This document shows positions 2,041 through 45,585 of a stretch of DNA of 64,000 nucleotides, in pieces. The notes beneath the pieces are model-generated. The model ran no database searches, was not told where the DNA came from, and was given only the letters and a program-made list of their open reading frames with translations. This DNA comes from a virus. Made by a program: the position numbers and the translations under genes. The stretch is from the IMG/VR virus record IMGVR_UViG_3300024255_000002; one strand, written 5' to 3'. How positions within the stretch are numbered: the stretch's first letter is position 1; each line of letters begins with the position of its first letter.

Positions 2041-2042
2041 TT

Positions 2043-16420: not shown

Positions 16421-16819
16421 ATGATTGAATATAAACTAGGTGATTACTTAAATGCCATCAATTGGTCTAAGATAAACTTACTTGATGGTGATGATATAAC
16501 ATGGGAAAAGAAGTTTGCCCCATTTATTATTAATCGTTGCTTATCGCAACACGTTGATACAATAATGATGGCAAATGAAATGAATCAAAGACACGGCCTT
16601 TCTAAAAGGTCACAGTTTCATTTTTTACTAAATAGTATTCGTAAGAGAAAAAGATTTGGTGGTAAATGGATATCTACCTCTAAATCTAAAAACTTAGAGT
16701 ATGTAAAAGAATATTATGGTTATAGTAACATCAAAGCTAAACAGGCCTTAGACATACTTGATAATAAACAATTGAAACTTATCAAAGAAAAACTTGATAA
16801 GGGTGGGAGAAGAAAATGA
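16421..16819 (+). CDS. gp62: Clamp loader small subunit gp62
   Basis: PFIINRCLS...ANEMN...YVKEYYGYSNIKAKQAL; lies between gp44 and regA. Confidence 0.9.
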   Translation: MIEYKLGDYLNAINWSKINLLDGDDITWEKKFAPFIINRCLSQHVDTIMMANEMNQRHGLSKRSQFHFLLNSIRKRKRFGGKWISTSKSKNLEYVKEYYGYSNIKAKQALDILDNKQLKLIKEKLDKGGRRK

Positions 16820-17244
16820 GTGAAGGACTTAAATGGTCGCCTGACAGTATGTTAGAGGTTACCCTTAAACAACCCGATGATTTTCTAAAAGTAAGAGAGA
16901 CACTTTCCAGAATAGGTGTGGCAAGTCGTAAAGATAAAACTTTATTTCAAAGTTGTCATATACTACACAAACAAGGAAAGTATTACATAGTTCATTTCAA
17001 AGAATTATTTGCTTTAGACGGCAAACAAGCAACATTAGCTGAAAACGATATACAAAGAAGAAACACAATATCAATCTTATTACAAGATTGGAGTTTGATC
17101 TCTATCGTTAAACCTAATGAGGCAGAAAACAAAGCACCATTATCTCAAATAAAGATAATTGCTTTTAAAGAGAAGAGCGAATGGAACTTACAGGCGAAAT
17201 ATAACATCGGTAAGAAAATAAATAAAGACGAAACAACTGAATAA
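16816..17244 (+). CDS. regA: Translational repressor RegA
   Basis: DDFLKVRETLSRIG, QSCHILHKQGKYYIVHFKELFALDG. Confidence 0.96.
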   Translation: MSEGLKWSPDSMLEVTLKQPDDFLKVRETLSRIGVASRKDKTLFQSCHILHKQGKYYIVHFKELFALDGKQATLAENDIQRRNTISILLQDWSLISIVKPNEAENKAPLSQIKIIAFKEKSEWNLQAKYNIGKKINKDETTE

Positions 17245-25397: not shown

Positions 25398-26642
25398 ATG
25401 CCAAACTTAAATAATATAAGCGTTAAAGAAGGAGAATTTACTGCTATGCAGGAAAAGGCAACTGCCTTTATATTCAAACGTTCTTATTTACCACCTAAAA
25501 AAAGATTTAAATCAGCGGAAGATATTGTTAAAGATAAAGACACTGTAAAAGGTTTAAAAGAAATATTTGTGTTTAACAATAAACAACTGTTTAACTACAC
25601 ACTCCCCTGGTCTCAAAACCAAGAAAAAGTTTGGTTTGAAACTTTTTATAAACAACATGAAAAGATATTAGATGTTTTTCCTAATGCTAAATTTACTATT
25701 TTTGATAGAGACGATAAAAATGGTTTTATGGAATGGTTTCAAAAACTCATAAAAGATTACTTCAGAATATCAAAGAAAGATAGTTATAATCCTGCTGATA
25801 TTTGGTTAATAGATAAAAAAGAAGTTAATAGAAAAACCATAATAAAAGAATTAAACCAAGATTCTGCTACAAGAACCCTTACAGAATTAAATCAAGTAAT
25901 GAGATCACTATACAATGAAAAAAAAGTTGTGGGACTTTCTTTAAAATTAGTATCAGGACAAACAGCAAAGTATGAAAGAGTAAACCTTGATGATAAGTTT
26001 TTTAAAGATTTAGAAGCTAAAAAAGGTGTATATGATTATAAACTTAGTGATATAAAAATGGACTTAACTACCATTGGATCAGGAAAAAGAGCCAATTGGA
26101 AAACACAGGACACAGTTATTTCTCTAAGTCTTAACAATTCGATAAAAGTAAAATTTCAAGTTAAAGGAAACGGAACTTCTAAATTTGAAAATTTAAAAAT
26201 TGAAGGAACGGGTGTTGGGGAAAAGGCAAGACTTGGTAAAGCACCTCTACTACTTATTTCTAAATTAACAAGTGGTAAACCATATAAGAAAACATTTCAA
26301 AACAGATTTGCTGATTTTCCAAAAGATACAAAAGAGTTTATAAAACAATCTAAAAAATATAATAATATGTTTAGTGAACTAGTAGCAAATTGTAAAAAAA
26401 ATAATATAAGATTAGTAACTAATATATTACCTAAAGATTTTACAAAGCAGATGAAGATTGCTTTTGACGGAGAGAAACCTTGGATTGCAAATTCTAAATT
26501 AATGCAATTAACCTTTGTTCATACGATTTGTTCAATGGTAAACAAAGATATGATGGATGAATATGTTACTGATATTTTATTCTTGTCTAAAAAAGAAGGA
26601 AGAAATATCTTTCAATTTGGCCCTTTTGGTAAACTATATTAG
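25398..26642 (+). CDS. Putative PD-(D/E)XK nuclease-like protein
   Basis: YNPADIWL...VGLSLK motif; late-like CATAAATA 25385-25392. Confidence 0.5.
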   Translation: MPNLNNISVKEGEFTAMQEKATAFIFKRSYLPPKKRFKSAEDIVKDKDTVKGLKEIFVFNNKQLFNYTLPWSQNQEKVWFETFYKQHEKILDVFPNAKFTIFDRDDKNGFMEWFQKLIKDYFRISKKDSYNPADIWLIDKKEVNRKTIIKELNQDSATRTLTELNQVMRSLYNEKKVVGLSLKLVSGQTAKYERVNLDDKFFKDLEAKKGVYDYKLSDIKMDLTTIGSGKRANWKTQDTVISLSLNNSIKVKFQVKGNGTSKFENLKIEGTGVGEKARLGKAPLLLISKLTSGKPYKKTFQNRFADFPKDTKEFIKQSKKYNNMFSELVANCKKNNIRLVTNILPKDFTKQMKIAFDGEKPWIANSKLMQLTFVHTICSMVNKDMMDEYVTDILFLSKKEGRNIFQFGPFGKLY

Positions 26643-26716
26643 TATAAATAGTCATAAAAAAGATTGTATTTGTTTATGGAATAGTGCTTGACAAATAGCA
26701 CTAAATTTGATATAAT
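26643..26716 (+). promoter_or_regulatory. Tandem late (TATAAATA) and sigma70 promoters
   Basis: TATAAATA 26643-26650; TTGACA(26688)-N17-TATAAT(26711), with the -35 inside inverted repeat tagtgct/agcacta. Confidence 0.7.
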
Positions 26717-26743: not shown

Positions 26744-27967
26744 ATGCAAAGTTTTAAACAATATTTAAGTGAGGCTAAAAATACTCATTTAGAACATTTA
26801 GAAGATTCTATCATTAATGATGGATATGAAGGTGGTGTTAATGCCATTACATTTCTTAAATCATTAAGAGATATGCTTATCGGATCGTCAAGTAGAGGAT
26901 TAAACGTTTCAGTAAAATGGGACGGTGCTCCTGCTGTGATCTGTGGTATCAATCCTGAAAACGGCAAATTCTTTGTTGGATCAAAATCAGTATTCAACGT
27001 AACTCCCAAAATAAATTATACATCTGCTGATATTAGAAGAAATCACACAGGCGGACTTGCTGAAAAATTACAAGTTGCATTAGTAGAATTAAAGAAATTA
27101 GGAATCAAAGGCGTTGTTCAAGGTGACTTTTTATACACTAACAATGAATTAAAAAGTGCCAACATAAGAGGTGAAAGTGTTTTAACTTTTACACCTAATA
27201 CAATCACATATGCTGTGCCTGTAGATAGTACAATAGGTAAAAGAATTGCCTCTGCTAAAATGGGTATCATATTTCACACAACATACACTGGTAGAAAAAT
27301 GGCAGACTTAAAAGCAAACTTTGGTGTGAACGTAAGTTCATTTAGAAAAACATCATCTGTATTTTTTGATGACGCAGGATACAAAGACGCTTCAGGTGTT
27401 GCTACATTTACAACTGCTGAAAGTGAAAGATATGACGCAATGTTAAGAATGGCATTTGGTTCTGTAAGTAAAGGCAGACCAATATTAAACTTATTAAGTA
27501 AACAACAAAATTTATATTCTGTTGGTGCTAGACTTAAAATATTTTTCAATGACTTTATTAGAAGAGGTCAATCAATAGAAAATGTAAGTAAGTTAGTATC
27601 ACAATTTAGAACATATTATATTAGTGTTTTAGACAAAGAAATATCGGCAAGAAAAACACAAAATGCAAAAGATAAATTTGAAGCAATCAAAAATGAAGGA
27701 CTAAAATTTATGGAAAAAAATGAAGTCGGTATATATTTTGCCATTGCTAGTTATGTGACATTACAAAGAGTAAAAGATTTCTTAATAAACAAAATGAATC
27801 AAATAAAAAGTATAGGAACATTTTTACAAAAAGACAATGGGTTTGAAGTTACAAATCCAGAAGGATATGTTGCCGTAGATAGAATGGGCAACGCTGTAAA
27901 ACTAGTTGATAGATTAGAGTTTAGTACTGCTAACTTTAATATTTCTAAGAACTGGATAAAAGGATAA
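26744..27967 (+). CDS. Conserved T4-like protein (DUF6267-like) with ATP-dependent ligase-type nucleotidyltransferase motifs
   Basis: N-terminus MQSFKQYLSEA; KWDG (motif I KxDG), QGDF, PEGYV (motif IV), VKLV (motif V). Confidence 0.65.
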   Translation: MQSFKQYLSEAKNTHLEHLEDSIINDGYEGGVNAITFLKSLRDMLIGSSSRGLNVSVKWDGAPAVICGINPENGKFFVGSKSVFNVTPKINYTSADIRRNHTGGLAEKLQVALVELKKLGIKGVVQGDFLYTNNELKSANIRGESVLTFTPNTITYAVPVDSTIGKRIASAKMGIIFHTTYTGRKMADLKANFGVNVSSFRKTSSVFFDDAGYKDASGVATFTTAESERYDAMLRMAFGSVSKGRPILNLLSKQQNLYSVGARLKIFFNDFIRRGQSIENVSKLVSQFRTYYISVLDKEISARKTQNAKDKFEAIKNEGLKFMEKNEVGIYFAIASYVTLQRVKDFLINKMNQIKSIGTFLQKDNGFEVTNPEGYVAVDRMGNAVKLVDRLEFSTANFNISKNWIKG

Positions 27968-27970
27968 GAT

Positions 27971-29329
27971 ATGGCAAATTTTAGAAAAGACTCACAGGCA
28001 TTTTTAAACGATAGTAAAACTATCTTTGAAGTACCAATGATAGCAACAAAAGATGGTAATGTTGTATCACAAACAAATCCGTTTCCAGTCACAATATCAA
28101 ATACTGGAACCAGTCAAACAATTTCAACAGAAACAAATGTGGATGCTTTTGGTAGAAGTAGAATATCATCACCACTAACACTATTTGATTCCTCACATAG
28201 ATTTGCTGATAATGATTTATGGAATGAAGATATTACAGGTGACGCTTCATCAACCTTTCAAATAAATGAGGGTCTAATAGATTTAACAGTTGGTGATAAT
28301 GCTAATGATGAAATTATTAGAGAAACAAATAAAGTAATGGCTTATCAACCTGGTAAATCATTGTTAATTTTAAATTCTTTTATATTTAATGCTGCTAAAA
28401 CTGGATTAAGACAAAGAATAGGATATTTTGGAACAGACAATGGTATCTATTTTGAACAAGATGGTACAGATGTTTATATAGTAGAAAGAAGTAAAATAAC
28501 AGGTTCAGTTGTAGAAAGTAGAATTGCTCAAGCAGATTGGAATATAGATAAATTAGATGGCACAGGTATAACAGGTTATACTTTAGATTTAACAAAAGCA
28601 CAAATTCAATATATAGATTTAGAATGGTTAGGTGTAGGAACCGTAAGAGCAGGTTTTGTTATTAATGGTAGATTTGTAGTTGCTCACGCATTTCATCACG
28701 CTAATTTAGTATCTGGAACATATATCACTACAGGTTCTTTACCTTTAAGATGTGAAATTAAACAACAAACGGAAGTTGGAGATGGTTCTACCGCTACATT
28801 AAAACAAGTTTGTTCTAGTGTTATGAGTGAAGGTGGTTATGAATTAAGAGGAAGGCAACAAGCTATTGGAACAGTGATTACTTCTCCTTATAGATTAACA
28901 ACTGCTGGAACTTATTATCCTGTAGCTTCTATAAGACTAAAAGCTGCAAGACTAGATGCAATTGTTATTCTTACTGCTTTATCTTTATTGGGAACTGGAA
29001 ATGGAAAATTTTATAATTGGCAAGTGGTTGCTGGTGGAAGTATTGCGGGTGGAACTTGGGTGTCTGGTGGAGCAAACTCATCTGTTGAATATAATATTAC
29101 AGGCACTGATCACACATTAGGGACAGGAAGAATATTGGCTAGTGGTTTTACTTCTTCTTCCAAACAAATAAGTGAATCTATTAATATATTAAAAGAAGCT
29201 TTATTTAAGTTTCAATTAGAGAGAAATACATTTACTAGTACACCTGAAATTTTAACATTGAGATTGGCTTGTGATAGTAATACAGAAGATGTTTTTGGTT
29301 CCATGGACTGGGAGGAGGTTACTAGATAA
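27971..29329 (+). CDS. Probable virion structural protein
   Basis: DAFGRSRIS, YQPGKS, IDLEWLGVG; beta-rich, Gly/Thr-rich. Confidence 0.55.
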   Translation: MANFRKDSQAFLNDSKTIFEVPMIATKDGNVVSQTNPFPVTISNTGTSQTISTETNVDAFGRSRISSPLTLFDSSHRFADNDLWNEDITGDASSTFQINEGLIDLTVGDNANDEIIRETNKVMAYQPGKSLLILNSFIFNAAKTGLRQRIGYFGTDNGIYFEQDGTDVYIVERSKITGSVVESRIAQADWNIDKLDGTGITGYTLDLTKAQIQYIDLEWLGVGTVRAGFVINGRFVVAHAFHHANLVSGTYITTGSLPLRCEIKQQTEVGDGSTATLKQVCSSVMSEGGYELRGRQQAIGTVITSPYRLTTAGTYYPVASIRLKAARLDAIVILTALSLLGTGNGKFYNWQVVAGGSIAGGTWVSGGANSSVEYNITGTDHTLGTGRILASGFTSSSKQISESINILKEALFKFQLERNTFTSTPEILTLRLACDSNTEDVFGSMDWEEVTR

Positions 29330-29913
29330 TGAAAACATTTAGAACATATATTAAAGAGGCACAACAAAGACGAATAGTTATGTTAGGTGGTCCTGGTTCA
29401 GGTAAATCAACATACACTAAGTATTTGATGGATAGATACGGCATACCTCACATATATCCAGGTGGCATGTTAAGAAAAGAAGTTGAGAAAAATACAGAAA
29501 TAGGAAAACAAATTAAAGATTTAATTACAAAAGGTAAGTTTGCACCTAGTGAAATGGTTTTAAAACTTATTAAAGACAGAATTGCAGAAAGTCCAGACGG
29601 ATATGTATTAGACGGATGGCCTAGATATATGAAACAAGTAAGAGAAATGGAACGAGAAAATATCGGACATGATGTTGCTGTGTTTTTAGATGTAAGTAAA
29701 GAAGAAGTAATGAAACGATTACTTGCAAGAGGTAGAGTTGATGATACCGAAGAAGTTATCAACGATAGAATTAAACTATACAAAGAAGAAACTGGTCCTG
29801 TTGTAGAATACTTTAGAAATAAACCTGGTTTTATAAGTATTAAAGCAGAGGGTGATACACCAGAAAACATTAGTAAAAAAATTATTAGAGAAATAGAAAA
29901 TGAAAAGCTTTAA
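29329..29913 (+). CDS. adk: Adenylate kinase with a capsid-targeting-like N-terminus
   Basis: GGPGSGKST P-loop, GGMLR, VLDGWPR, RGRVDD (short LID). Confidence 0.9.
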   Translation: MKTFRTYIKEAQQRRIVMLGGPGSGKSTYTKYLMDRYGIPHIYPGGMLRKEVEKNTEIGKQIKDLITKGKFAPSEMVLKLIKDRIAESPDGYVLDGWPRYMKQVREMERENIGHDVAVFLDVSKEEVMKRLLARGRVDDTEEVINDRIKLYKEETGPVVEYFRNKPGFISIKAEGDTPENISKKIIREIENEKL

Positions 29914-32900
29914 ACAATTTAACGAGTCTATTATAGACATACCAAGAAAAACGTATGCAAAGGCAGTATTTGATAAACCAGATACACCTAATCCAGAGTT
30001 AAAAGCTTCAGTTAAAAAACAAGTATTAGACGGAATTAAGTCATTTGAAAAATTTGGAAAAGTAGTTAAGTATGGTCTTATTGGATCAATACTAACAAAA
30101 CAATATAGAGGTGACGCTGACCTTGATGTTAATATTTTATTTGATATACCTGGTTCAAAAGAAGAACAAGAAAAGGTACATGAAAAAATAAAAGAACATC
30201 AATATGAAATAAATGGTAAAACAATACCAGGCAGTGAACATCCTATAAACTATTTTTCTATCATAGATCCTGCTATATTTGATAAGGCAAATAAGATGGC
30301 AGATGGTATTTTTGATATCGATAAGAACAAATGGATCAAAAAACCAGAACCAGGCAAATTTGAACCTGAAAAATATATGGCGGATTTTCAGAAACGAGTA
30401 TCTGAAATAGATGTTGTTAAGGGTGAATTGGCAAGAGACATGATTGATTATGAAGAACTAAAAGAACTAGGCAAAGACGATATAGAAAACCTAGAAGGAT
30501 TAGTTTCTAAAAAGTTAGCTGAAATTAAAGATTCCATTAACACATTATTTGATATTGGTGCTAAAACTGTTAAAGATCGAAAAGACGCTTTCTTAGCAGA
30601 TATGTCACCAGACGAAGTAAGAAAATTTGGAGTAAAAAACCGACTTCCTAAAAACGTGATTTATAAAATGTTAGAAAAGTATCATTATCTCAAATTCTTT
30701 AAAACTTTGGAAGAGATTATGTTGGATGGTAAAATAACACCAGATGAACTTAAATCGTTATCTAAGATTAAAGAAGCCAAAGGTAGACATATAGCGTTTA
30801 CCTTTGGCCGATTTAATCCACCTACAATAGGACATGGAAAATTATTACAAAAATTATTTACAGTTAGAGCAGACAACCACTTTATATTTTTAAGTAGATC
30901 GGAAGACTCAGATAAGAACCCATTATCATTTAGAGAGAAGTCAAAAGTTATGAAACAAATGTTTCCTAGATATGCTTCAAACATAATAGTAAGTGGTTCA
31001 AATAGAGTATTTGATATAGTCACTGATCTTTACAATAAAGGTGCTACAGAATTATCAATGGTTGTCGGTTCAGATAGAGTAAGAGAATTTGACACCACTA
31101 TTAAAAAATATAATGGTGTAAAAAGCAGACATGGTTATTATAACTTTGATAACATTAATATAGTTTCTGCTGGAGAAAGAGATCCAGATGCTGACGGCGC
31201 TACAGGAATGTCAGCAAGTAAAATGAGAGCGGCCGCTAAGGCAAATGATTTAGATGCATTTAAAAAAGGATTGCCAAGTGGATTTAGAGACGCCGAAGAA
31301 TTAATAAAAAGATTAAGACAAGGCATGAGATTGGCTGCTTCAAACGATCCAGAAATAGAAGAAGGAACATTAAAGTTTAAACCATTTATAACTGCTTCTA
31401 CAAAAGAGGAGTTAGAAAATATGATTATAAGAGACAAGTATTTAACAGAGCATTTATATGATGTAGGAGACATTGTTGATGATGTTGAGAATAAAGTTAC
31501 AGGTGTTATCGTAAGACGAGGAACAAACTATGTAACACTTGAAGACGTTGATAATAAACTACATAAGTCATGGTTATTTAATATTATTGAATCGCCTGTT
31601 TATCCTAGAGAATTAGACGAGTCGGCAAAAAAATTAAAATACGACAAAGAGACAGATCAACCTAAAAAATATGTTGCTGGTTTATCAGACAAAGAGAAGA
31701 AGTCACACGACAAACATTTAGAAAAACAAGGCAAAAAATCTGACGATGATAAAAGTGCTTACACACAATCGCCAGCAGATAAAGTTGCTAAAACTAAACC
31801 AAGTGTTCATACAAAGAAATTCAAACAAATGTATGGTGAACTTAAAACTGAAAAAGAGCCACAAAAAAGAGGTGATGAATTTGTAGATACTGGATTGCCT
31901 GAAAGTTCAAATAGAAAGGCAGATGAGTTAGAACATGCTAAATTAATGAATAAGGCACTTAGAACTATGCCACAATCTATTAAACAAAAAGAAATTATAA
32001 AACAAGTAAATGTTGTAAGAAAAAGATTAGGATATAGACCTCTTAGTGAGTCATATGAAATAGGCCATGATTATGCAAAATACACTTCATCTATAACCCC
32101 AGGTCAAAAAAATTATGACCCTAAATTTCAAGGTGGTTCATACAAACCAAGTGAACCTAAAAACAACTTAATCAACGTTAATGCTGATAAAAAAGTTGAT
32201 TTAAAAGATATTGAAGAATGGATAAGTGACAGTGAAACAATAGATAAATATAAAGAAAGATACGGTGAAGACTGGCAATCTAAGTTAGACGAAGTATATA
32301 ATAAGATGTTTAACAAAGTTGTGGATACTAGTGAAAACAGTTACACAACAAAAGTCAAAGACGTTAAAGGTGATTTGAAAACAATGCCTGAAGAAGACTT
32401 TGAAAGTAAATACAAAAAGTCTAAATCAGAAATGAAAGTGAACGTAGGTGATAATGATATGAAATTAAGAAGTTTTAAAGAACATACTAATGTAAATGAG
32501 GCAATAGATTATCATTTACAAATGAATGTGCCTATTTGTGAGAACATTTTTAGACATAATTCATCATCGTTCTTTGAGTTTTATAATAGACTTAGAGGAA
32601 AAGTTGTAAAAGAAAAAATTGAATTATCTGTTGAAGACAAAGAGTTTTTAGATACAGATATTGGAACCTTTGGATTATTTGAAGGCAATGAAGTTGCTTT
32701 AGATTGTCCAATGCTTGATGAAGAGGATGAGAAAAATCCTCCAATAGGTAAACCAAAAAGAGGCGGACCTAAAAAGTTTTATGTCTATGTAAAAGATGGA
32801 GATAAAGTTAAAAAGGTCACATGGGGTGATACATCAGGATTATCAGTTAAGATGAATGATCCTGAGGCAAGAAAAAGTTTTGCTGCTAGGCACCAATGTT

Positions 32901-33001
32901 CTACACAAAAAGATAGAACATCGGCTGCATATTGGGCTTGTAACACACCAAGATATGCTAAACAGTTAGGTTTATCTGGTGGTGGAAGTTTTTTCTGGTA
33001 A
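29900..33001 (+). CDS. Multidomain (poly)protein: Pol-beta-like nucleotidyltransferase + HIGH-family cytidylyltransferase-like domain + small basic domains
   Basis: IGS...DADLD; FGRFNPPTIGH, VVGSDR, GMSASKMR; C-terminal ARKSFAARHQC...YWAC. Confidence 0.8.
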   Translation: MKSFKQFNESIIDIPRKTYAKAVFDKPDTPNPELKASVKKQVLDGIKSFEKFGKVVKYGLIGSILTKQYRGDADLDVNILFDIPGSKEEQEKVHEKIKEHQYEINGKTIPGSEHPINYFSIIDPAIFDKANKMADGIFDIDKNKWIKKPEPGKFEPEKYMADFQKRVSEIDVVKGELARDMIDYEELKELGKDDIENLEGLVSKKLAEIKDSINTLFDIGAKTVKDRKDAFLADMSPDEVRKFGVKNRLPKNVIYKMLEKYHYLKFFKTLEEIMLDGKITPDELKSLSKIKEAKGRHIAFTFGRFNPPTIGHGKLLQKLFTVRADNHFIFLSRSEDSDKNPLSFREKSKVMKQMFPRYASNIIVSGSNRVFDIVTDLYNKGATELSMVVGSDRVREFDTTIKKYNGVKSRHGYYNFDNINIVSAGERDPDADGATGMSASKMRAAAKANDLDAFKKGLPSGFRDAEELIKRLRQGMRLAASNDPEIEEGTLKFKPFITASTKEELENMIIRDKYLTEHLYDVGDIVDDVENKVTGVIVRRGTNYVTLEDVDNKLHKSWLFNIIESPVYPRELDESAKKLKYDKETDQPKKYVAGLSDKEKKSHDKHLEKQGKKSDDDKSAYTQSPADKVAKTKPSVHTKKFKQMYGELKTEKEPQKRGDEFVDTGLPESSNRKADELEHAKLMNKALRTMPQSIKQKEIIKQVNVVRKRLGYRPLSESYEIGHDYAKYTSSITPGQKNYDPKFQGGSYKPSEPKNNLINVNADKKVDLKDIEEWISDSETIDKYKERYGEDWQSKLDEVYNKMFNKVVDTSENSYTTKVKDVKGDLKTMPEEDFESKYKKSKSEMKVNVGDNDMKLRSFKEHTNVNEAIDYHLQMNVPICENIFRHNSSSFFEFYNRLRGKVVKEKIELSVEDKEFLDTDIGTFGLFEGNEVALDCPMLDEEDEKNPPIGKPKRGGPKKFYVYVKDGDKVKKVTWGDTSGLSVKMNDPEARKSFAARHQCSTQKDRTSAAYWACNTPRYAKQLGLSGGGSFFW

Positions 33002-33004
33002 GTT

Positions 33005-33289
33005 ATGAGTAAACCATATGATGATATAGTGATTGAAGAAAACCATTTTATAAGAACTATTGACAATAATGCCGATAATTCAGAAATGGTTTGGCATAGA
33101 GATAAGGCAGACCGAAAGGTAGTTGCTTTAGAAGGTGATGAATGGTATTTACAAATGGATAATGAAATGCCTCAACTTATAGAATTAAATAAACCGATGC
33201 ATATTAAAAAGGGTGTGTATCATAGAGTAATAAGAGGAAAACAAAAATTAAAACTAGAAATTTGGGAAAGTAACCATGACAAAATATAG
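33005..33289 (+). CDS. Small cupin-like protein
   Basis: WHRD...VYHRVIRG. Confidence 0.6.
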   Translation: MSKPYDDIVIEENHFIRTIDNNADNSEMVWHRDKADRKVVALEGDEWYLQMDNEMPQLIELNKPMHIKKGVYHRVIRGKQKLKLEIWESNHDKI

Positions 33290-34244
33290 AACAAGTTGGC
33301 AAGAAATAATGGAGAGTGTAAACGAAAGTCAAACCGTTTATGTTGCAAGATGGACATCTAAACAGGATGGCAAAAGATATGCGTCTCCTTTTAAAACACA
33401 ACCAGACGCTGATAAAAGAGCAAAAGAATTAAAATCACAAGGTAATAGAAATATATCTGTAACGCAAGACACTTTAAGGTCAAACGTTAAATGGAAAAAA
33501 GATGGGTCTCCTGATGTAAAAGGAATGCAAGAAGAAGTGTTAGATGAAGCTATTACAAACCAAAGATTAGAACAATTAAAAAGGTCTTGGGCATCTATTA
33601 AAACAATGACACCTTCAAAGATTAATGACTTGAAAAAGTTTTTAGAAAAACAATCATCAGACGTGTTATTACAATTAAGTCAATATGGTATTAACTTTGT
33701 TTCCCACATGGCAACATCTGTAATGAGAAAAAGAAAACCTGGATCATCGGCACATGCTGGTTCTTTCAAAACATATGATTTAAAAATGAGTGAGGCAGTA
33801 ACACCAGAGAAAAATCCAGAAGCTAAATTCAAAGATAGTAGAGACGATATTTCAAAGTCACAACAAGAATTAGATAAGTTAGATAAATCTAATCCTGACA
33901 ACAAACAACAGGTTGAATTAGGAAAAAAAGAAATAGAAGTGCAAAAGTTAAAACTTAAACACGACATGGATAAAGAAAAAGAAAAACAATTAACTCGTTC
34001 CGAACAATTCATAGAACAGATTGAAGGCTTAAAAACAAAAGCTGAAAAATCTGGTATGCCATATTCAATATTAAAACAAGTTTATAATAGAGGAATGGCT
34101 GCATGGAAAGGTGGTCATAGACCAGGAACAACACCTCAACAATGGGCGTTTGCTCGTGTAAATAGTTTCATAACTAAGTCAAGTGGGACTTGGGGTAAAG
34201 CAGATTCAGATTTGGCTGATAAAGTAAAAGGAAGTAAAGACTAG
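33276..34244 (+). CDS. Probable internal head protein with a DUF5824-like C-terminal domain
   Basis: ILKQVYNRGMAAWKGGHRPGTTPQQWAFARVNSF...DSDL. Confidence 0.65.
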   Translation: MTKYRTSWQEIMESVNESQTVYVARWTSKQDGKRYASPFKTQPDADKRAKELKSQGNRNISVTQDTLRSNVKWKKDGSPDVKGMQEEVLDEAITNQRLEQLKRSWASIKTMTPSKINDLKKFLEKQSSDVLLQLSQYGINFVSHMATSVMRKRKPGSSAHAGSFKTYDLKMSEAVTPEKNPEAKFKDSRDDISKSQQELDKLDKSNPDNKQQVELGKKEIEVQKLKLKHDMDKEKEKQLTRSEQFIEQIEGLKTKAEKSGMPYSILKQVYNRGMAAWKGGHRPGTTPQQWAFARVNSFITKSSGTWGKADSDLADKVKGSKD

Positions 34245-34253
34245 GAGAAAACA

Positions 34254-35042
34254 ATGGATAAAAAATATTTTGAAACAAAACAAGGCAGCTTAGAAGATGT
34301 ATCCACAAAGATCGCTAAAGAGCAGCCAACAATAACAAAACCAGAAACAAAAGTAAAACTAACAACAGAAAAAAAATACTTTGAAACTAAACCAAATTCA
34401 CTTTCAGATATCGCTGCTAAGATTGTAAGTGAAGGAGTTGATCCAGTAAACAAAGATGCTGTTAAAAAAGATTTTACAGATAGAAAAGATAAAGACCTTG
34501 ATAACGATGGTGATACAGATTCATCAGACGAATACTTACATAAAAAGAGACAGGCAATTTCTAAAAATATGAAAGAAAACAAAGCATACATGTTATCTTA
34601 TGGTAAAAAAGGTGAAAAGGCAAAATTCTTTTATGGCAACAGTTTATCAGATATTCAAAACAAAGCACATGAATTAAGAAAACAAGGTATCGTTGTTGAT
34701 AAAATGGGTAGAACTGAACCAACTCATAAGTTAAGACAAACTATTGAGTCAGTAAATCCAGACGACAAAGGTGAAAAACAAAATGCAGATAAGATAAAAG
34801 CATATACTGATCCTAAAAAAGGTGAGAAGTCTGTTATCAAACCTTTACAAGAATTAGAAAAAGAGTGTCCTCAATGTCAAGGTAAAGGATGTGATCATTG
34901 TGATGACAAAGGAACTCATACTGTAAAAGAAAATAAAAAGACATTTAAAGAGATTCGAATACAGGCTGGTGAAGGTCCAAAAACTGATACAGGCAAAAAA
35001 ACTGCTGTAATAGATACTGAACCATCAACAAAACCAATATAA
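34254..35042 (+). CDS. Probable internal head protein with tandem repeat, DxDxDG loop and Cys4 zinc motif
   Basis: KKYFETK..SL.D...KI..E twice; DLDNDGDTDSSD; CPQCQGKGCDHC. Confidence 0.6.
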   Translation: MDKKYFETKQGSLEDVSTKIAKEQPTITKPETKVKLTTEKKYFETKPNSLSDIAAKIVSEGVDPVNKDAVKKDFTDRKDKDLDNDGDTDSSDEYLHKKRQAISKNMKENKAYMLSYGKKGEKAKFFYGNSLSDIQNKAHELRKQGIVVDKMGRTEPTHKLRQTIESVNPDDKGEKQNADKIKAYTDPKKGEKSVIKPLQELEKECPQCQGKGCDHCDDKGTHTVKENKKTFKEIRIQAGEGPKTDTGKKTAVIDTEPSTKPI

Positions 35043-35062
35043 AAAGTGCGACACTTTAGCGC

Positions 35063-35091
35063 TTGATAAAAATGCTCATATATGATAGTAT
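35063..35091 (+). promoter_or_regulatory. Early promoter with an upstream GCGAC-N-GCGC box
   Basis: TTGATA-N17-TAGTAT; GCGACACTTTAGCGC at 35048-35062. Confidence 0.6.
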
Positions 35092-35598
35092 ATGAGTATG
35101 AAAACAAACACTATGAATAAAATAATATATTGTGATATGGATGGTGTTCTTGCAGACTTTAAAAAAGGTGCTGAAAGAGCAACTAAAATGTCAATCAAAC
35201 AATGGATGAATATCCCTTCTTCAAAAGAGAAGTGGAGACCTATTATAGAAATGCCTAATTTCTGGTCTTCTCTTCCTTGGATGCCAGGAGGACAAAGATT
35301 ATGGAGTTATATCTCTAAATTTAATCCACACATACTAAGTGCATATGTTGAGGAAGAATTTGACCCTAACTGTATACCAGGCAAAAGAGAATGGTTAAGA
35401 AGAAATACAGGATTGTCAAGTCCTCAAAGAGTTAATTTAGTTAAAAGAAAAGAAAAAAAACAATTTTCTAAAAAAAATGCTATCTTAATAGATGATTATC
35501 AAAAAAACGTTGATGAATTTACTAGATCAGGTGGTATTGGTATCTATCATACAGACACATCAAAAACAATCTCTCAACTCAAAAGATTAGGATTTTAA
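35092..35598 (+). CDS. HAD-family 5'(3')-deoxyribonucleotidase
   Basis: YCDMDGVLADF, ILSA, GKREWL, ILIDD. Confidence 0.88.
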   Translation: MSMKTNTMNKIIYCDMDGVLADFKKGAERATKMSIKQWMNIPSSKEKWRPIIEMPNFWSSLPWMPGGQRLWSYISKFNPHILSAYVEEEFDPNCIPGKREWLRRNTGLSSPQRVNLVKRKEKKQFSKKNAILIDDYQKNVDEFTRSGGIGIYHTDTSKTISQLKRLGF

Positions 35599-35601
35599 TC
35601 T

Positions 35602-35609
35602 TATAAATA
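35602..35609 (+). promoter_or_regulatory. T4-type late promoter
   Basis: TATAAATA. Confidence 0.75.
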
Positions 35610-35677
35610 GTCTAGTGTATAACACGGTATAAATTTATATCAAAAATTGAGTACCTTTAACTAAGGGAGAGAATAAT

Positions 35678-35959
35678 ATGTCAAGTTGGGGAAAAACAGA
35701 CGCTGCTGGATCAGCACCTTTATGGGCTACAGCACATGTAAATCAAGCGCCAACAAGTACGAATGCTTCGGACTTGTTTGAGAATAATACGCTTCCATTA
35801 CCATATTTTAGTGATATGTTTGTGGCACTATTTAACTACACTTCAGGTGAAGTGCCAAGTGGTGCTCATCAAGGATGGGTTTTAACAAAGACGTTTACAG
35901 GTGGAAGATTAGGCAGATCACAACATGAGACACTTGTTGCATTAACAAGTAACTCGTAG
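35678..35959 (+). CDS. Hypothetical late / virion protein
   Basis: MSSWGKTD...HQGWV...GR...ETLVAL; downstream of a late promoter. Confidence 0.65.
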   Translation: MSSWGKTDAAGSAPLWATAHVNQAPTSTNASDLFENNTLPLPYFSDMFVALFNYTSGEVPSGAHQGWVLTKTFTGGRLGRSQHETLVALTSNS

Positions 35960-35972
35960 TAAATAAAATAAC

Positions 35973-35998
35973 ATAGGGGTCGCTTTGGCGGCCCTTAT
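35973..35998 (+). terminator. Hairpin terminator
   Basis: ataggggtcgc-tttg-gcggcccttat. Confidence 0.6.
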
Positions 35999-36068
35999 AT
36001 ATATTAACAACGTGATGTAGGAAAATACCTACAATAGCATTCCCGAAAGGGTTTATAGGAGAATAAAA

Positions 36069-36521
36069 ATGGCAGATAAAAAAATAACACAATTAACGGA
36101 CTTAGGTGATTCACTGGCATCCGTAGATTTATTTCATGTAGTGGATGATCCATCAGGAACACCAATCAATAAAAAAATTGCAGCTGAAGATGTTTTCAAT
36201 AACATTCCTAGTTACTTAGGACTATCACAAACTAGTCAAACGTTAACTATGGATAGTTCATCACAGGTTGCAGATGTAACTTCGGCAATAACTGAACTTA
36301 ACGCTGCTTCGGCACCAGGAACAGTTACACTTGCTGACGGAACTAATGGACAAATTAAAACTATCCTAATTACAACTGGATCAAATGCAGTAACAATAAC
36401 ACCATCTAATTTATCAGGACATACTTCGGTAGTTCTAAATGCTTTAGGTCAGTCTGTTACATTAATGTTCAAGTCTTCAAACTGGAACATTGTTGCTGGG
36501 CATGATTACACAACAGTATAA
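36069..36521 (+). CDS. Virion structural protein (fibre/decoration-like)
   Basis: MADKKITQL N-terminus; TLADGTNGQIK; Ser/Thr-rich. Confidence 0.6.
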   Translation: MADKKITQLTDLGDSLASVDLFHVVDDPSGTPINKKIAAEDVFNNIPSYLGLSQTSQTLTMDSSSQVADVTSAITELNAASAPGTVTLADGTNGQIKTILITTGSNAVTITPSNLSGHTSVVLNALGQSVTLMFKSSNWNIVAGHDYTTV

Positions 36522-36536
36522 TTTTAGGAGTTAATT

Positions 36537-36791
36537 ATGATAGATAAGGCAAAACTTGAAAGTGAAAAGGCAACTTTGCAAAAAGATTATTCAGAGTTGT
36601 CTAATAAAATTGCTACCTTTGAAAAATCTTTGTTCAGTATGAGAAACAATTTACATGCTGTTCATGGTGCAATTCAACAAGTAGATAAATTTTTAAAAGA
36701 TTTTGATGATGAAAAAAAAGTATTATTACAGGAGGGAGAACGTAGTGGTGAAGAACAAGACTATAAAGTCACATACAGTTTCGATGGATAA
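36537..36791 (+). CDS. Small coiled-coil protein
   Basis: AGGAG SD; heptad pattern. Confidence 0.65.
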   Translation: MIDKAKLESEKATLQKDYSELSNKIATFEKSLFSMRNNLHAVHGAIQQVDKFLKDFDDEKKVLLQEGERSGEEQDYKVTYSFDG

Positions 36792-36957
36792 TTTTTTATC
36801 TGATCTTGCTGATAATACACCAAATGATAAACAATTTGAGGGAGTGCAATTAGAAGATAATTCTGAAGATTATGAATTGCAAGAAGTTGAAGAAGATTTA
36901 TCAGGTGGTATAACATTTAAGTATTTAAAAAAAGAAGTAACGGAGAAAAAGAAATGA
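36703..36957 (+). CDS. Small acidic hypothetical protein (likely start MDNFL, about 36784)
   Basis: Acidic ORF between neighbouring genes. Confidence 0.5.
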   Translation: MMMKKKYYYRRENVVVKNKTIKSHTVSMDNFLSDLADNTPNDKQFEGVQLEDNSEDYELQEVEEDLSGGITFKYLKKEVTEKKK

Positions 36958-37388
36958 AAACTTTTAGACAACACATTAAAGAAGGTGGACAAATGGGTGT
37001 TGGAACAACTTCACACCATGACTCAGTAGAGAATGGTAGTGTAGGAGTTCATAACATACATGAACCTGCTATAATGCAAAGAGTTAACGCATTTGTTGGT
37101 GCTGTTGCTGATAGAGAATATATAAAACCTGAAGGCGCTCTTGCTGATTTAGAAGAAAAATTAGGAAGACTTGGTATTGGTTTTAAATCACCTATCAACA
37201 TAGTAGGCAAAAACGGAAACTTTAAAACTGAATTGACACAACACGGCGGACGTTTTGGTAAAGATACTGACGGCTCTGATATTAATGATGATGGTATAAC
37301 ACATAGAACAGGTAAAGCATTAACATTAAAAGGAAAATATGAGACGTTAGAGAATGGCGCTGTAAGAGTATATGCAGAGCTTGGCTAA
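36954..37388 (+). CDS. Probable internal head protein
   Basis: N-terminus MKTFRQHIKEG resembles the T4 capsid-targeting sequence. Confidence 0.6.
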   Translation: MKTFRQHIKEGGQMGVGTTSHHDSVENGSVGVHNIHEPAIMQRVNAFVGAVADREYIKPEGALADLEEKLGRLGIGFKSPINIVGKNGNFKTELTQHGGRFGKDTDGSDINDDGITHRTGKALTLKGKYETLENGAVRVYAELG

Positions 37389-37750
37389 TGTTTACACAGA
37401 TAACGAGTAAAAATTGGCTGTTTTATGCCATAAAAAACTATAATATTCCTAATCTGGATACAGAGCAGGAATTTTATGAAGATATAAAACGATTTAAGTA
37501 TATTAAACGTTTATTTCGAAAGTTTAAGTCAACAGGTGAGTTAAAAACTAGACTTATACTTAATCATATAATAGTTTTAAATAATGTATTTGGAACTGAA
37601 GCAGCCTCAACACTGCTACTGTTTAAGATAGAAAGAGAGTTTTGGCCTGTATTAAAAACTTTTTTGATATTTTTAAATAATATAAAAGATGAGGAGTTAC
37701 CATTAGTGAAAACTAATAAGACTCTGTTATTAAGTTTGGAGAAAATATAA
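37388..37750 (+). CDS. Conserved T4-like hypothetical protein
   Basis: EFYEDIKRFKYIKRL...RLILNHIIVLNNVFG. Confidence 0.75.
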   Translation: MFTQITSKNWLFYAIKNYNIPNLDTEQEFYEDIKRFKYIKRLFRKFKSTGELKTRLILNHIIVLNNVFGTEAASTLLLFKIEREFWPVLKTFLIFLNNIKDEELPLVKTNKTLLLSLEKI

Positions 37751-38340
37751 TGGGAAGAGCAATAGACCTTTTAATTACATATAGAGTTATTAAGTTATTA
37801 GTAACTCCATGGGAAAAACATGACGCTTATAAGTTAGGTATTATTGATGATACGGGTAAAGTACTAAGAAAAGCAAAAACACTAAAAACTAGTGAAGAAA
37901 AGAAATCTTATACTTTATTACATAGATTTGTTTTTAATTTAAAAAGACTTATAGGTATAGTACCTGGTGGTAAATCAAAACTAGGATCATATGCTGCTGC
38001 TTTAGGGTTATTATTAAAAGAAGAAAACGAAATAAATTCTGTTGAGTTAGAAAAAGATTTATATAATCATTTAAGACAAAATAATTTAATATCATTAGGT
38101 GATGACTTAAATGAAACTGTTGGTTATGATTATCTACCTAAGTCTAAGTTCTTAATGATTGATGAACTAAGAGATTTAGAAGATAATGTTATTGCTGAAG
38201 TTGGCGATGTTATTGAAAATATAGTAGATCAAAAACCAATAGACAAGTACTTTGGCGTAAACCTATATAAAGTTATAAATGAAGAAACGCAAAAGACAAT
38301 TGTTGTATCGGAAGATAACATAGAGAGGATAAAATTCTAA
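37750..38340 (+). CDS. Conserved T4-like hypothetical protein
   Basis: AYKLGIIDDTG...YTLLHRFVFNLKR...YAAALGLLLKE. Confidence 0.75.
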   Translation: MGRAIDLLITYRVIKLLVTPWEKHDAYKLGIIDDTGKVLRKAKTLKTSEEKKSYTLLHRFVFNLKRLIGIVPGGKSKLGSYAAALGLLLKEENEINSVELEKDLYNHLRQNNLISLGDDLNETVGYDYLPKSKFLMIDELRDLEDNVIAEVGDVIENIVDQKPIDKYFGVNLYKVINEETQKTIVVSEDNIERIKF

Positions 38341-39005
38341 TGAAATCATTTAAGAACTGGTTTGAATCTTGTTGGGATGGATATAAACAAGTTGGTATGA
38401 AGAAAAAAGGTGACAAGATGGTACCAGATTGTGTGCCTGAAGAAGCACCAGCAAATTCAGTTGGTTCTGGTAATATTGCAGGAGTAGGAGTTGGGCCCGA
38501 TGGTGAGCCAGGAGTTATGCCTAGTGCTGCTAATGTTTACAAGAAAAAGAACAAAGATGAATTTAAACAAAGAATATCACACTTTCTAACTAAATTTAAA
38601 ACTGTAAAAGAAGATAACGATACAAAAGTTTTAGAGATAGCACAACAGATACAAGATGACGAGAAAGTCTATTCAAAACAAATAGAACCTATTTTAAAAA
38701 ATCTAAGTAGAAAAAAAGTTAAAGACGAATATAACGAAGAAGAAGCAACAAAATTATTCAGATATGTTGTTGATAATAAAGTAAGAGAAGTTGCTAAAGG
38801 TGCCAATATGAATAGTAGAATGATTCCTGGCACAGTAAGAAATGAAGTTGCAACAAAATTACTTTCAACATACAGTAAAAAGATTGATGAATATGTTGAC
38901 ACATATAGCCCAATGGCATCTATGGGATCGCAAGGGCAATTTCACCCTACTGGAAAAAGTCGAGTAGTGGTAAACGCAGAAAACGAAAAAAACAAAAAGG
39001 ACTAA
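38340..39005 (+). CDS. Probable internal head protein
   Basis: MKSFKNWFES; CWDGYKQVGMKKKGDKMVPDCVP; EEAPANSVG. Confidence 0.6.
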   Translation: MKSFKNWFESCWDGYKQVGMKKKGDKMVPDCVPEEAPANSVGSGNIAGVGVGPDGEPGVMPSAANVYKKKNKDEFKQRISHFLTKFKTVKEDNDTKVLEIAQQIQDDEKVYSKQIEPILKNLSRKKVKDEYNEEEATKLFRYVVDNKVREVAKGANMNSRMIPGTVRNEVATKLLSTYSKKIDEYVDTYSPMASMGSQGQFHPTGKSRVVVNAENEKNKKD

Positions 39006-41012: not shown

Positions 41013-41501
41013 ATGAAAACATCAATGAAAAAATTGATGTTAGTAGTGGGACTTATATCATTCACATCGATTACATCAATTCTAGCATCAGAATTAGTAC
41101 ATAATTTTAAGAATCCTGCCTTTAGTGGTAATGGATATTCTTCACATGTATTGTCTATCAATCAACTTGAAGCACAAAGAGAGAAACAAGTTATTGATGA
41201 CAGAAAATCAGCAGAAGCAGCTGCTGAAAGAGAAGAAAAAAACAAGACGGTAAATAAATTTATCGCCAATGTTGAAAGTAGAATTTATGCCAACTTATCA
41301 AAACAGTTAGTTGATAATATGTTTGGTGAAAGTTGTGATAGTAGTACCACAACTTGTCCTACATCTGGTAATGCAGATATAGAAGGTGCTCAAATTTATT
41401 GGGTAAAAGATACTACAACTGAAATAATTACATTAACAATTACAGCTGATGATGGAACAGTTACAACGATGGCAGTTCCAATAGGTGATTTTCAATTTTA
41501 G
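41013..41501 (+). CDS. csgF: Curli assembly protein CsgF-like
   Basis: Signal peptide then SELVHNFKNPAFSGNG (CsgF N-terminal F.NP.F.G motif); precedes CsgG. Confidence 0.8.
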   Translation: MKTSMKKLMLVVGLISFTSITSILASELVHNFKNPAFSGNGYSSHVLSINQLEAQREKQVIDDRKSAEAAAEREEKNKTVNKFIANVESRIYANLSKQLVDNMFGESCDSSTTTCPTSGNADIEGAQIYWVKDTTTEIITLTITADDGTVTTMAVPIGDFQF

Positions 41502-41510
41502 GATATTATA

Positions 41511-42350
41511 ATGATAAAAATATTAATGACTATAGTTATGACGTTTGCCTTGATTGGATGTCAAACAACTAAAGATATTGAAATATACAAAAATAAAGGA
41601 CCATCTATACAAGTATCAACTACTAAAGAAAAGTTGAAGGCATTGCCTGATTTAGATGGACAACCTATTATAACAATAGCTGTTTACAAATTTACAGACC
41701 AAACAGGTCAGAGAAAACCTAGTACAAAGTTTTCTCAACTATCAACTGCTGTCACACAAGGTGGTAGTATGTTTGTTGTGGATGCTTTAAAATCAGTTTC
41801 AGGTGGAGATTGGTTTCAAGTATTAGAGAGAGAAGGATTAGACAATCTAATCAAAGAAAGACAGTTGATTAGATCAACTAGAACAGAATATGATGGTGAA
41901 CAACAGGTTGGAAATATTTTAAAACCTTTAGTGTTCGCTGGACTTCTAATGGAAGGATCCGTTGTAGGGTACGATAGTAATATACAATCGGGTGGACAAG
42001 GTGCGAGATATTTAGGTATTGGTTTAAGTGAACAGTATAGAGTAGATCAAGTAACAGTATCTATAAGACTTGTATCAGTTCAATCAGGTGAAATATTATT
42101 AACCTCAAATGTGACTAAAACTATTGCTAGTCATTCAAAAGGTGGTGATGTATTTACATTCTTAGATATGAATACAAAAGCAATAGAGATAGAACGTGGA
42201 GTCGCTGCTAATGAACCAGTAACATACGCAGTAAGAAGTGCTATAGAATATGCCGTGCTAGATATAATTATGTGCGGTAAAGAAAAAGGATACTGGAAGT
42301 TTAAAGAAGAAAAAGAAAAAGGATTACACGAAAATGAAAACAATAATTAG
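41511..42350 (+). CDS. csgG: Curli secretion channel CsgG-like lipoprotein
   Basis: Lipobox LIGC; IAVYKFTDQTGQRKP, STAVTQG, WFQVLEREGLDNLIKERQLIR, GARYLGIG. Confidence 0.92.
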   Translation: MIKILMTIVMTFALIGCQTTKDIEIYKNKGPSIQVSTTKEKLKALPDLDGQPIITIAVYKFTDQTGQRKPSTKFSQLSTAVTQGGSMFVVDALKSVSGGDWFQVLEREGLDNLIKERQLIRSTRTEYDGEQQVGNILKPLVFAGLLMEGSVVGYDSNIQSGGQGARYLGIGLSEQYRVDQVTVSIRLVSVQSGEILLTSNVTKTIASHSKGGDVFTFLDMNTKAIEIERGVAANEPVTYAVRSAIEYAVLDIIMCGKEKGYWKFKEEKEKGLHENENNN

Positions 42351-43017
42351 TGTTATAATGTTCTTATTGATGTCAACTATGTTATGTGCTAATGACATAT
42401 ATGTCACTCAATCAGGTGCAAACCTTGATTTAGATATAACGCAAGACGGATCAAACAACACAGTTGGTAACTCCACAACAGCTTCTGCTTCAAGTGGTGC
42501 AACTACTGTATTGAATATTGATCAAGTTGGTAACTCAAACGTAATTAAATATCAAATTAACGGTGCCACATACACAGGTACTATTAATTTAACAGGTAAC
42601 TCAAATGATGTTGATTTAAATTGTGATAGTACAAATGGTAATAGTTCTTGTGGAACTGTAACTGCTTCTATTACAATGACAGGAAATTCAAGTGATATAG
42701 ACCTAGATATAGGGGAAACTAGTGATGCTTCAAACTCAACTGTATCTATAACTGGACAATCTGGTTCAGATTCAAACACTATAGCTGCAACAGTTGACGG
42801 AACAAGTGCTATTCTAACTTTATCAGTTAATGGTGATACAAACAACTATTTAATTGATATTGATGGTAATGGTGATGTTAATGGTCATACATTGATACAT
42901 ACACACACTGGTTCAATTGCTGACGTTGATATAATACAATCAGGTGTTAATGACAATATGATCACTTTAACAACAAGTGGTGATAATGCAGATATCGATA
43001 TATCGCAAACGGACTAA
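42334..43017 (+). CDS. Secreted curlin-repeat protein
   Basis: Signal peptide; repeated I/V-x-Q-x-G-x-x-N units, rich in N/S/T/G/D. Confidence 0.75.
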   Translation: MKTIISVIMFLLMSTMLCANDIYVTQSGANLDLDITQDGSNNTVGNSTTASASSGATTVLNIDQVGNSNVIKYQINGATYTGTINLTGNSNDVDLNCDSTNGNSSCGTVTASITMTGNSSDIDLDIGETSDASNSTVSITGQSGSDSNTIAATVDGTSAILTLSVNGDTNNYLIDIDGNGDVNGHTLIHTHTGSIADVDIIQSGVNDNMITLTTSGDNADIDISQTD

Positions 43018-43060
43018 ATCACAATGATAACATTATTACTATTTACAGGATTAATAATAT

Positions 43061-45579: not shown

Positions 45580-45585
45580 ATAGTT

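Follow-up and report, generated by a model that had tools for sequence, protein, structure and literature searches.

The closest described system is the capsid-targeting sequence (CTS) of phage T4, MKTYQEFIAE (PMC8442874). Propeptides of the T4 internal proteins are 10-19 residues long, and the CTSs of IPI, IPII and IPIII have been reviewed after the work of Mullaney and Black 1996 (PMC9026906). Amber-suppressor genetics in T4 assigns targeting chiefly to CTS residues 4 and 7, with residues 8 and 10 assigned to processing (PMC9026906). The protease gp21 cleaves after I/L-x-E, with non-canonical xxE sites cut more weakly (PMC12991175), and the T4 enzyme Alt is trimmed by gp21 at both ends (PMC9026906). 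NMNAT-like proteins and kinases have been repeatedly detected in cyanophage virions, with carriage versus co-purification left open (PMC10665884, PMC9602691). Here we analyze five open reading frames (ORFs) that share a short N-terminal leader in a 64,000-nucleotide stretch of viral DNA (IMG/VR record IMGVR_UViG_3300024255_000002; hereafter the window). We consider it quite likely that these leaders are T4-type capsid-targeting propeptides, and that the enzymes bearing them are loaded into the head, trimmed after a Glu, and kept with the DNA. The mechanism itself is known from the T4 CTS and gp21. What is new is the marine Kyanoviridae-like consensus, an enzyme cargo that includes an adenylate kinase (Adk) family member, and the link to virion proteomics. 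A full-text literature search for a CTS in cyanophages or pelagiphages, with subscription journals outside its scope, returned only the general T4 review, and the proteome papers of cyanophages S-CREM2 and S-SCSM1 make no mention of a targeting sequence.

Five leaders and their likeness to the T4 signal

The leaders all lie on the plus strand: MQSFKQYLSE (26744-26773) begins a 407-residue DUF6267 protein, MKTFRTYIKE (29329-29358) a 194-residue Adk-family nucleoside monophosphate (NMP) kinase, MKSFKQFNE (29900-29926) a 1033-residue protein, MKTFRQHIKE (36954-36983) a 144-residue protein, and MKSFKNWFE (38340-38366) a 221-residue protein. An earlier reading of the window from its letters alone (the sequence-only reading) had given these starts and peptides at 26744, 29329, 29900, 36954, and 38340 and had likened them to the T4 CTS; on re-reading, the starts and peptides are exactly as claimed. 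Their common pattern is M-[KQ]-[ST]-F-[KR]-x-aromatic-x-x-E. When all six frames of the 64 kb were translated, a strict regular expression matched these five and nothing else, but it was derived from the same data, and the T4 CTS is a fairer test as an outside query. ORF N-termini were scored by ungapped BLOSUM62 comparison with the published MKTYQEFIAE, a query independent of the window. The five leaders scored 29, 28, 24, 19, and 15 and took ranks 1-5 of 84 N-termini, with the next at 11 and the median at -1. None of 435 internal Met-started 10-mers scored 20 or more.

The likeness to T4 extends to the functionally important positions. All five leaders have F at position 4, position 7 is Y, Y, F, H, and W, respectively, and three leaders carry LSE, IKE, and IKE at positions 8-10. 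Among 36 mutually diverse DUF6267 relatives with Glu at position 10, drawn from 50% clusters, F4 is present in 31, F/Y7 in 28, and L/I/V8 in 34, with free variation at positions 2, 3, 5, 6, and 9. Conservation at 4, 7, 8, and 10 thus falls on the functional positions of the T4 signal. Codons vary between the leader copies in the window (Ser AGT, AGC, or TCA; Thr ACA or ACT), and the 48%-GC cyanophage S-CREM2 encodes the same peptide with other codons. As the codons differ both within the window and between phages, it is the peptide that is conserved and under selection, not the RNA. Predicted mature proteins have isoelectric points of 8.7-9.6 in four of the five leader-bearing ORFs and 6.1 in the 144-residue protein, so that most would be basic, resembling T4 internal proteins.

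Several comparisons show that the leader is an added segment that the fold of the cargo can do without. When the Adk is aligned with solved adenylate kinases in the PDB, their residue 2 falls opposite its residue 15, and NCBIfam Adk models begin at its residues 14-17; the proposal that the Adk leader is a phage-specific extension thereby holds. Among 100 unfused DUF6267 representatives, 18 are without a leader and start M[AS]KNTHLEHLED, a start that coincides with the predicted mature end of the window DUF6267 protein once cut after the leader Glu. In homologues of the Pol-beta-type domain of the 1033-residue protein, leader length and sequence vary and the junction is always ...E/SIIDIPR (slashes mark cleavage points, predicted except in T4 gp23). 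The AlphaFold model of the DUF6267 protein has a predicted local distance difference test score of 91.7, with residues 1-11 below 50.

Unrelated proteins carry such leaders in Methylophilales phage Melnitz, Pelagibacter phage HTVC008M, contig L011, S-CREM2, and S-SCSM1. Melnitz has MQGFKTFLSE, (M)INFSKYITE, MKKFSEIIE, and MKNFKNHIAE; HTVC008M has MKSFKDFQNVNE, MKTFTDFSTD, and MKTLKELL; and L011, a divergent 9-kb IMG/VR contig, has MYSFKQYLNE, MKTFKDFISE, and ...HLHE/GLYDPGIF. The Adk has 891 metagenomic homologues at E <= 1e-10. Among the best 120 of these, 119 are extended before the P-loop, nearly all by a sequence of the leader type (MRTFRELYE, MKSFRDFIFE), and the single exception is a 177-residue form starting MLGGPGSGK. 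In P0001, a metagenomic Adk homologue of 304 residues, a leader comes first and the C-terminal two-thirds of the kinase are then duplicated in tandem. DUF6267 has at least 8000 related 90%-identity clusters and, like the leader-bearing Adk, is common in public, largely marine metagenomes.

Virion proteomes, prohead protease, and probable late promoters

Published cyanophage proteomes link the leader to the virion. The S-CREM2 genome was pieced together from loci, and all possible starts were scored against the T4 CTS. Six annotated proteins score at least 20, and five of the six end in [ILFM]-x-E: gp6 (MKDFDSFLEE), gp13 (MKDLHSFLTE), the kinase gp14 ((M)KRFDAFLTE), gp136 (MQTFSMFFSE), and the cytidylyltransferase gp154 (MKNFSSFLTE). 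The published virion proteome includes all five but not the sixth, which lacks [ILFM]-x-E, against 52 of 219 proteins detected overall (Fisher's test, p = 0.003). The NMNAT-like ORF91 of S-SCSM1 (MKSFLQFLKE) was also detected in virions, and the genes of the syntenic block surrounding it are annotated as encoding virion proteins. A homologous HxGH module in the 1033-residue window protein shares 31% identity with S-CREM2 gp154 and 37% with S-SCSM1 ORF91, both leader-bearing and both found in virions. Separately, the virion-detected S-CREM2 gp12 (L012:7704-10313, minus strand), annotated 'Cas9', contains RFASFMAE/A at about residues 18-25 and not at its annotated start; either a mis-called start codon or a longer propeptide may account for this. 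We also considered S-CREM2 gp6 ('SAM hydrolase', 414 residues) as a DUF6267 homologue on account of its size and rejected it (BLASTP E 0.1).

A gp21-type protease was found through contigs carrying an identical Adk. The Adk of sibling contig G002 is 100% identical to that of the window; the contig shows 95% nucleotide identity over its overlap with window positions 1-5351 and extends upstream into head genes. Among the products of these genes are the major capsid protein, a scaffold protein, and a Peptidase_S77 (gp21-type) protease (L033:6992-7639; 116.8 bits). HTVC008M also encodes a gp21-type protease, and the nearest record, the 68-kb fragment G001, is without one. In a HMMER alignment, AAFLSE/AA of the G002 capsid protein falls on SFLTE65/A66 of T4 gp23. 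The mature gp23 chain in the PDB comprises 456 of 521 residues, which places the T4 cut after residue 65. This capsid site motif matches the window leader ending QYLSE/A. In the sibling contig, an 85-residue ORF lies between the portal and protease genes (L033:5486-5743). It starts MVKTFSKFKDDIITE, a longer leader-like propeptide, and is possibly a prohead core protein of the gp67/gp68 type.

By gene spacing and promoter motifs, the cargo genes appear to form two tight late operons behind TATAAATA boxes. One late-promoter-like box (TATAAATAGTC, 26643..26650, plus strand) is intergenic, 93 nucleotides upstream of the DUF6267 gene, and a second (TATAAATAGTC, 35602..35609, plus strand), also intergenic, stands ahead of the second gene block. 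Genes from 26744 to 35598 abut or overlap (TAATG between the 452-residue and Adk genes), as in one late operon. In G002, TATAAATA precedes the portal, protease, and scaffold genes and is absent from the minus strand. The heptamer ATAAATA occurs 18 times in the window against 54 expected, a three-fold depletion, and 17 of the 18 copies are on the plus strand. Across the window, boxes are present at 13096, 26643, 35602, and 41000; the intergenic ones are likely late promoters.

Several points weigh against packaging and processing of the window proteins. In two leaders, those at 29900 and 38340, the Glu comes at position 9 and P3 is neither I nor L (FNE, WFE), which makes cleavage of both less certain. 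The protease is located in a sibling contig and not in the window. S-SCSM1 ORF30 (106 residues), which has a good leader, was not detected in the virion proteome. Pooled over S-CREM2 and S-SCSM1, leader proteins were detected in 6/8 cases against 91/501 for others (p = 8e-4), an enrichment that comprises eight proteins at a score threshold chosen after the window leaders had been seen. The packaging evidence all comes from cyanophages with ~30-40% cargo identity, none of it from this phage or from pelagiphages, and the S-CREM2 authors caution that co-purification with virions could occur for abundant proteins that have no structural role (PMC10665884). Even so, packaging, which the sequence-only reading had proposed, is well supported by proxy through the cyanophage virion proteomes, the gp21-type protease of the sibling contig, and the late-promoter boxes. 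It is thus probable that the virion carries these enzymes and delivers them along with the DNA. Leader cleavage in this phage, ejection of the cargo into the host, any part the enzymes may play against defences that deplete nicotinamide adenine dinucleotide (NAD) or cleave RNA, and any other function in the newly infected cell are inferences.

The proposed cargo block and its enzymes

All long ORFs of the 64-kb window are on the plus strand, and its GC content is ~31%. The first 25 kb hold a T4-type replication module whose gene order is that of HTVC008M (Kyanoviridae), the nearest isolate, with ~66% nucleotide identity over matching parts. The best protein match to the cytidylyltransferase module is in Melnitz (44%). 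Judged by gene order and these matches, the source of the window is a marine T4-like myovirus, Kyanoviridae-like, with HTVC008M and Melnitz as nearest isolates. The cargo block lies directly 3' of the gp41-type helicase gene, a place taken by 'hypothetical' genes in HTVC008M and Melnitz. The enzyme identities given by the sequence-only reading hold up: one ORF encodes a kinase of the Adk family, another a covalent nucleotidyltransferase resembling ligases, and a third joins nucleotidyltransferases of the Pol-beta and HxGH types.

The DUF6267 protein (26744..27967, plus strand; Pfam PF19782, 5e-123) resembles an RNA-ligase-like covalent nucleotidyltransferase. Residues K58, D60, and G61 (KxDG), E373-G374, and K386 are invariant in 70 sequences of ~40% identity and correspond to motifs I (catalytic Lys), IV (EG), and V (K) of covalent nucleotidyltransferases. 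In an exhaustive VIA-align structural search with the predicted model, RNA and tRNA ligases took ranks 1-8, 10, and 11 (Z 8.4-6.5), with DNA ligases at rank 9 and from rank 12 on. The matches include 5cot (Z 8.4, root-mean-square deviation 3.8, 186 residues aligned), 1xdn (8.3), T4 Rnl2 (7.5), and T4 Rnl1 (7.2), all moderate scores. Foldseek gave nothing below E 0.1 (best E 0.14, a DNA ligase), and a comparison with PDB sequences gave no match. The DUF6267 model therefore fits a ligase-like enzyme, at moderate Z-scores and with Foldseek alone not significant. One PHROG profile, phrog_455 (764 positions), joins DUF6267 (20-341) to the cytidylyltransferase module (416-753), so some phages fuse the ligase-like and HxGH enzymes; this hints that the two may work together.

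Downstream of the DUF6267 gene, in the same operon, is a 452-residue virion structural protein without a leader (27971..29329, plus strand; phrog_1645, 7e-151), whose relatives in cyanophages S-RIM12 and S-RIM8 are annotated 'virion structural protein'. Its stop overlaps the start of the Adk gene (29329..29913, plus strand; PF00406, 6e-38) in TAATG. The Adk had been called a standard adenylate kinase. It passes the Pfam ADK cut-off (130.8 bits against 26.8), which upholds the family, but it falls below every NCBIfam adenylate-kinase cut-off (best TIGR01351, 151 bits against 168), and 'standard' is slightly overstated. The protein is thus classed as an NMP kinase of the Adk family and only putatively as an adenylate kinase. 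Aligned with solved adenylate kinases, it shows the P-loop GGPGSGKST and the motifs MLR, DGWPR, RGRVDD, and RIKLY, with the conserved NMP-binding and LID arginines kept, and is of the short-LID type. Among 50,697 records of isolated phages, a set that may lack close records, no relative exceeded 34% identity. The P-loop protein gp129 of HTVC008M was considered as its orthologue and rejected, as contig L011 has both genes side by side.

The 1033-residue protein (29900..33001, plus strand) combines its leader with a Pol-beta-type nucleotidyltransferase, an HxGH nucleotidyltransferase, a DUF5824-like part, and a C-terminal phrog_7595 module. The Pol-beta-type signature GS...DxD reads GS(x12)DLD at 30083-30130 on the plus strand (residues 62-77). 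Residues 1-283 score 20.4 bits with PF01909 against a cut-off of 21, and many homologues at 51-58% identity have precomputed PF01909 or PF18765 matches; this N-terminal region found no PDB sequence match and no NCBIfam match. The HxGH nucleotidyltransferase is marked by the stretch 30803-30844 (plus strand), with TIGH at residues 310-313, and by an SxSxxR motif at 31205-31228 (plus strand), with MSASKMR at residues 437-443. The module matches PF01467 at 21.3 bits (cut-off 21) as well as phrog_3041 (1e-65) and phrog_395 (4e-63), both 'cytidyltransferase'. HTVC008M encodes the C-terminal module as a gene of its own (gp131, with an internal MVKSFKEVEE).

Two leader-like motifs lie inside this protein. 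TKKFKQMYGE (31811..31840, plus strand, residues 638-647) is conserved in relatives, with counterparts TKKFKDMFGE in Melnitz gene 18 and TQKFKKMFGE in HTVC008M gp130. The second, MKLRSFKEHTNVNE (32459..32500, plus strand, residues 854-867), sits at the junction with the C-terminal module and is the internal leader copy that the sequence-only reading had reported. The 221-residue protein at 38340..39005 (plus strand), in which the leader is followed by a CWDGYKQVG...C motif, aligns at its N-terminus with an internal stretch of Melnitz gene 18 after TKKFKDMFGE, and modules in the cargo block are shuffled between phages at leader-like motifs. This arrangement suggests polyprotein-like processing. 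TKKFKQMYGE may instead be part of the DUF5824 domain and not a junction.

Weaker candidate leaders are found on two further genes. A 322-residue DUF5824 protein (33276..34244, plus strand; PF19141, 2e-18) starts MTKYRTSWQE, and its orthologues start MTRYTKTMAE (HTVC008M) and MTRYNKTMSE (Melnitz). A 262-residue protein (34254..35042, plus strand), of which residues 58-110 match S-SCSM1 ORF92, annotated as a virion protein, starts MDKKYFETKQGSLE, possibly a longer propeptide. The 144-residue protein (36954..37388, plus strand) belongs to no known family; its orthologues start MKNFKNHIAE (Melnitz gene 27) and MKSFKDFQNVNE (HTVC008M gp139). The last gene of the cargo operon, at 35092-35598, encodes a 5'(3')-deoxyribonucleotidase (NT5C, phrog_2643, 8e-32) without a leader. 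Ahead of the block, a 414-residue phrog_1462 protein (25398-26642) starts MPNLNNISVKE, without a clear leader. Its positional counterparts in Melnitz (MQGFKTFLSE) and HTVC008M (MLSFTGYSNLSE) have one and gave no BLASTP match at 1e-3. Its profile matches only from position 107, and its N-terminal part may have been lost or replaced. Further downstream, window positions 41013-47511 hold a curli-type secretion cassette with CsgF (PF10614, 7e-13) and CsgG (PF03783, 4e-53), followed by lipoprotein/membrane ORFs.

Proposed packaging, its alternatives, and known systems

In the packaging model, the aromatic residues at positions 4 and 7 would bind each protein to the scaffolding core during prohead assembly. 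The gp21-type prohead protease would then cut after Glu 9 or 10, within an (I/L)-x-E site, and the mature, mostly basic protein would stay in the head with the DNA. The cargo would comprise the DUF6267 ligase-like enzyme, the Adk-family NMP kinase, the 117-kDa fusion of Pol-beta-type and HxGH (NMNAT-like) enzymes with small extra modules, and two small proteins. Ejection with the DNA would follow by analogy with the T4 internal proteins and Alt.

The leaders could instead target the prohead core, with the proteins serving as assembly or scaffold parts that are degraded or expelled at maturation, as are T4 gp22, gp67, and gp68, and not as delivered enzymes. T4 core proteins are likewise processed by gp21 (PMC9026906), the 85-residue leader-bearing ORF (MVKTFSKFKDDIITE) lies among the head genes of L033, and few peptides of the S-CREM2 cytidylyltransferase were counted (3 peptides, 11% coverage). 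This explanation is nonetheless improbable in our view: leader-bearing homologues are present in CsCl-purified mature virions of two phages, and the catalytic motifs KxDG, P-loop, and HxGH are intact and strongly conserved, which would be pointless for a discarded scaffold. Far less probable still is that the shared start arose at the nucleotide level or serves expression, for instance as a translational operator (of RegA or another regulator) or through a preference for A-rich starts, or that it is left over from recombination of adjacent genes. A RegA-like protein is indeed encoded at 16816-17244, by synteny with HTVC008M, the leader starts are A/T-rich (ATG AAA nnn TTT ARA), and modules of the cargo block are clearly shuffled between phages. 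Yet from one leader copy to another the codons for Ser and Thr differ at all three bases, and we rejected a nucleotide-level explanation on this codon variation. The 48%-GC S-CREM2 retains the leader peptide despite different codons, conservation is specific to peptide positions 4, 7, 8, and 10, the leader predicts virion detection, and the replication genes in the window are without it.

A more serious possibility, which we regard as tentative, is that the proteins are packaged and ejected but prime metabolism in a slow, nutrient-poor host, supplying nucleotides and NAD for its early transcription and replication, or process the incoming genome ends, and do not counter defences. For the NMNAT-like enzyme of virions, the cyanophage proteome studies propose a role in adjusting host NAD levels (PMC9602691, PMC10665884). 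The cargo operon also encodes the 5'-nucleotidase NT5C, and Adk balances adenine nucleotides. Against this, the combination of an RNA-ligase-like enzyme with P-loop kinases and nucleotidyltransferases recalls sets for RNA repair, for example T4 Pnkp with Rnl1. The present evidence does not separate metabolic priming from a counter-defence role. We hold as rather unlikely a broader proposal, in which abundant T4-like phages of SAR11, OM43, and picocyanobacteria would carry a head enzyme kit of an RNA-ligase-like enzyme, NMP and P-loop kinases, and Pol-beta-type and NMNAT-like nucleotidyltransferases, in part as a polyprotein that the prohead protease would cut at internal leader-like junctions. 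The kit would be ejected with the DNA and act ahead of any phage transcription, repairing cleaved RNA or replenishing nucleotide and NAD pools against abortive-infection defences, and the leader would predict injected proteins in ocean viromes.

Capsid targeting by the leader would give a mechanism and a simple sequence rule for the nucleotidyltransferases and kinases that recur in purified cyanophage particles, and would extend the T4 system to the ocean's most abundant myoviruses with metabolic and nucleic-acid enzymes as cargo. Should the rule hold, sequence alone would be enough to list the injected proteins of uncultured marine phages. For loading foreign proteins into Kyanoviridae heads, as in T4, a natural leader would be at hand.

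Compared with the CTSs of T4 IPI, IPII, and IPIII (PMC9026906), the window leaders are alike in being N-terminal propeptides of ~10 residues with aromatics at positions 4 and 7 and, in three of the five, an (I/L)-x-E at 8-10 for a gp21 protease. Their cargo is likewise unrelated and mostly basic, and the genes are variable and shuffled between related phages. They differ in consensus, here M-K-[ST]-F-[KR]-x-[FY]-[IL]-x-E with F instead of Y at position 4, and in cargo, which here consists of enzymes of 21-117 kDa and not small DNA-binding proteins. Some of this cargo is multi-modular with leader-like motifs at internal junctions. T4 Alt, an ADP-ribosyltransferase, would be a further parallel, as an enzyme packaged in a T4-type head, cut by gp21, injected, and active before phage genes are expressed; the enzyme classes differ, being an NMP kinase, a ligase-like enzyme, and nucleotidyltransferases in the window. 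In phiKZ-like and SPN3US jumbo phages, ejection proteins and proteins of the inner body similarly form a large head cargo that a related protease cuts after Glu (PMC9026906), but their propeptides are longer, with many sites of cleavage and no short leader of the CTS type, and these phages belong to another lineage. Closest in cargo are the virion cytidylyltransferase or NMNAT-like proteins and kinases of S-CREM2, S-SCSM1, and S-CBWM1 (PMC10665884, PMC9602691), which share the homologous HxGH module, in phages without the Adk and the fused Pol-beta-type nucleotidyltransferase.

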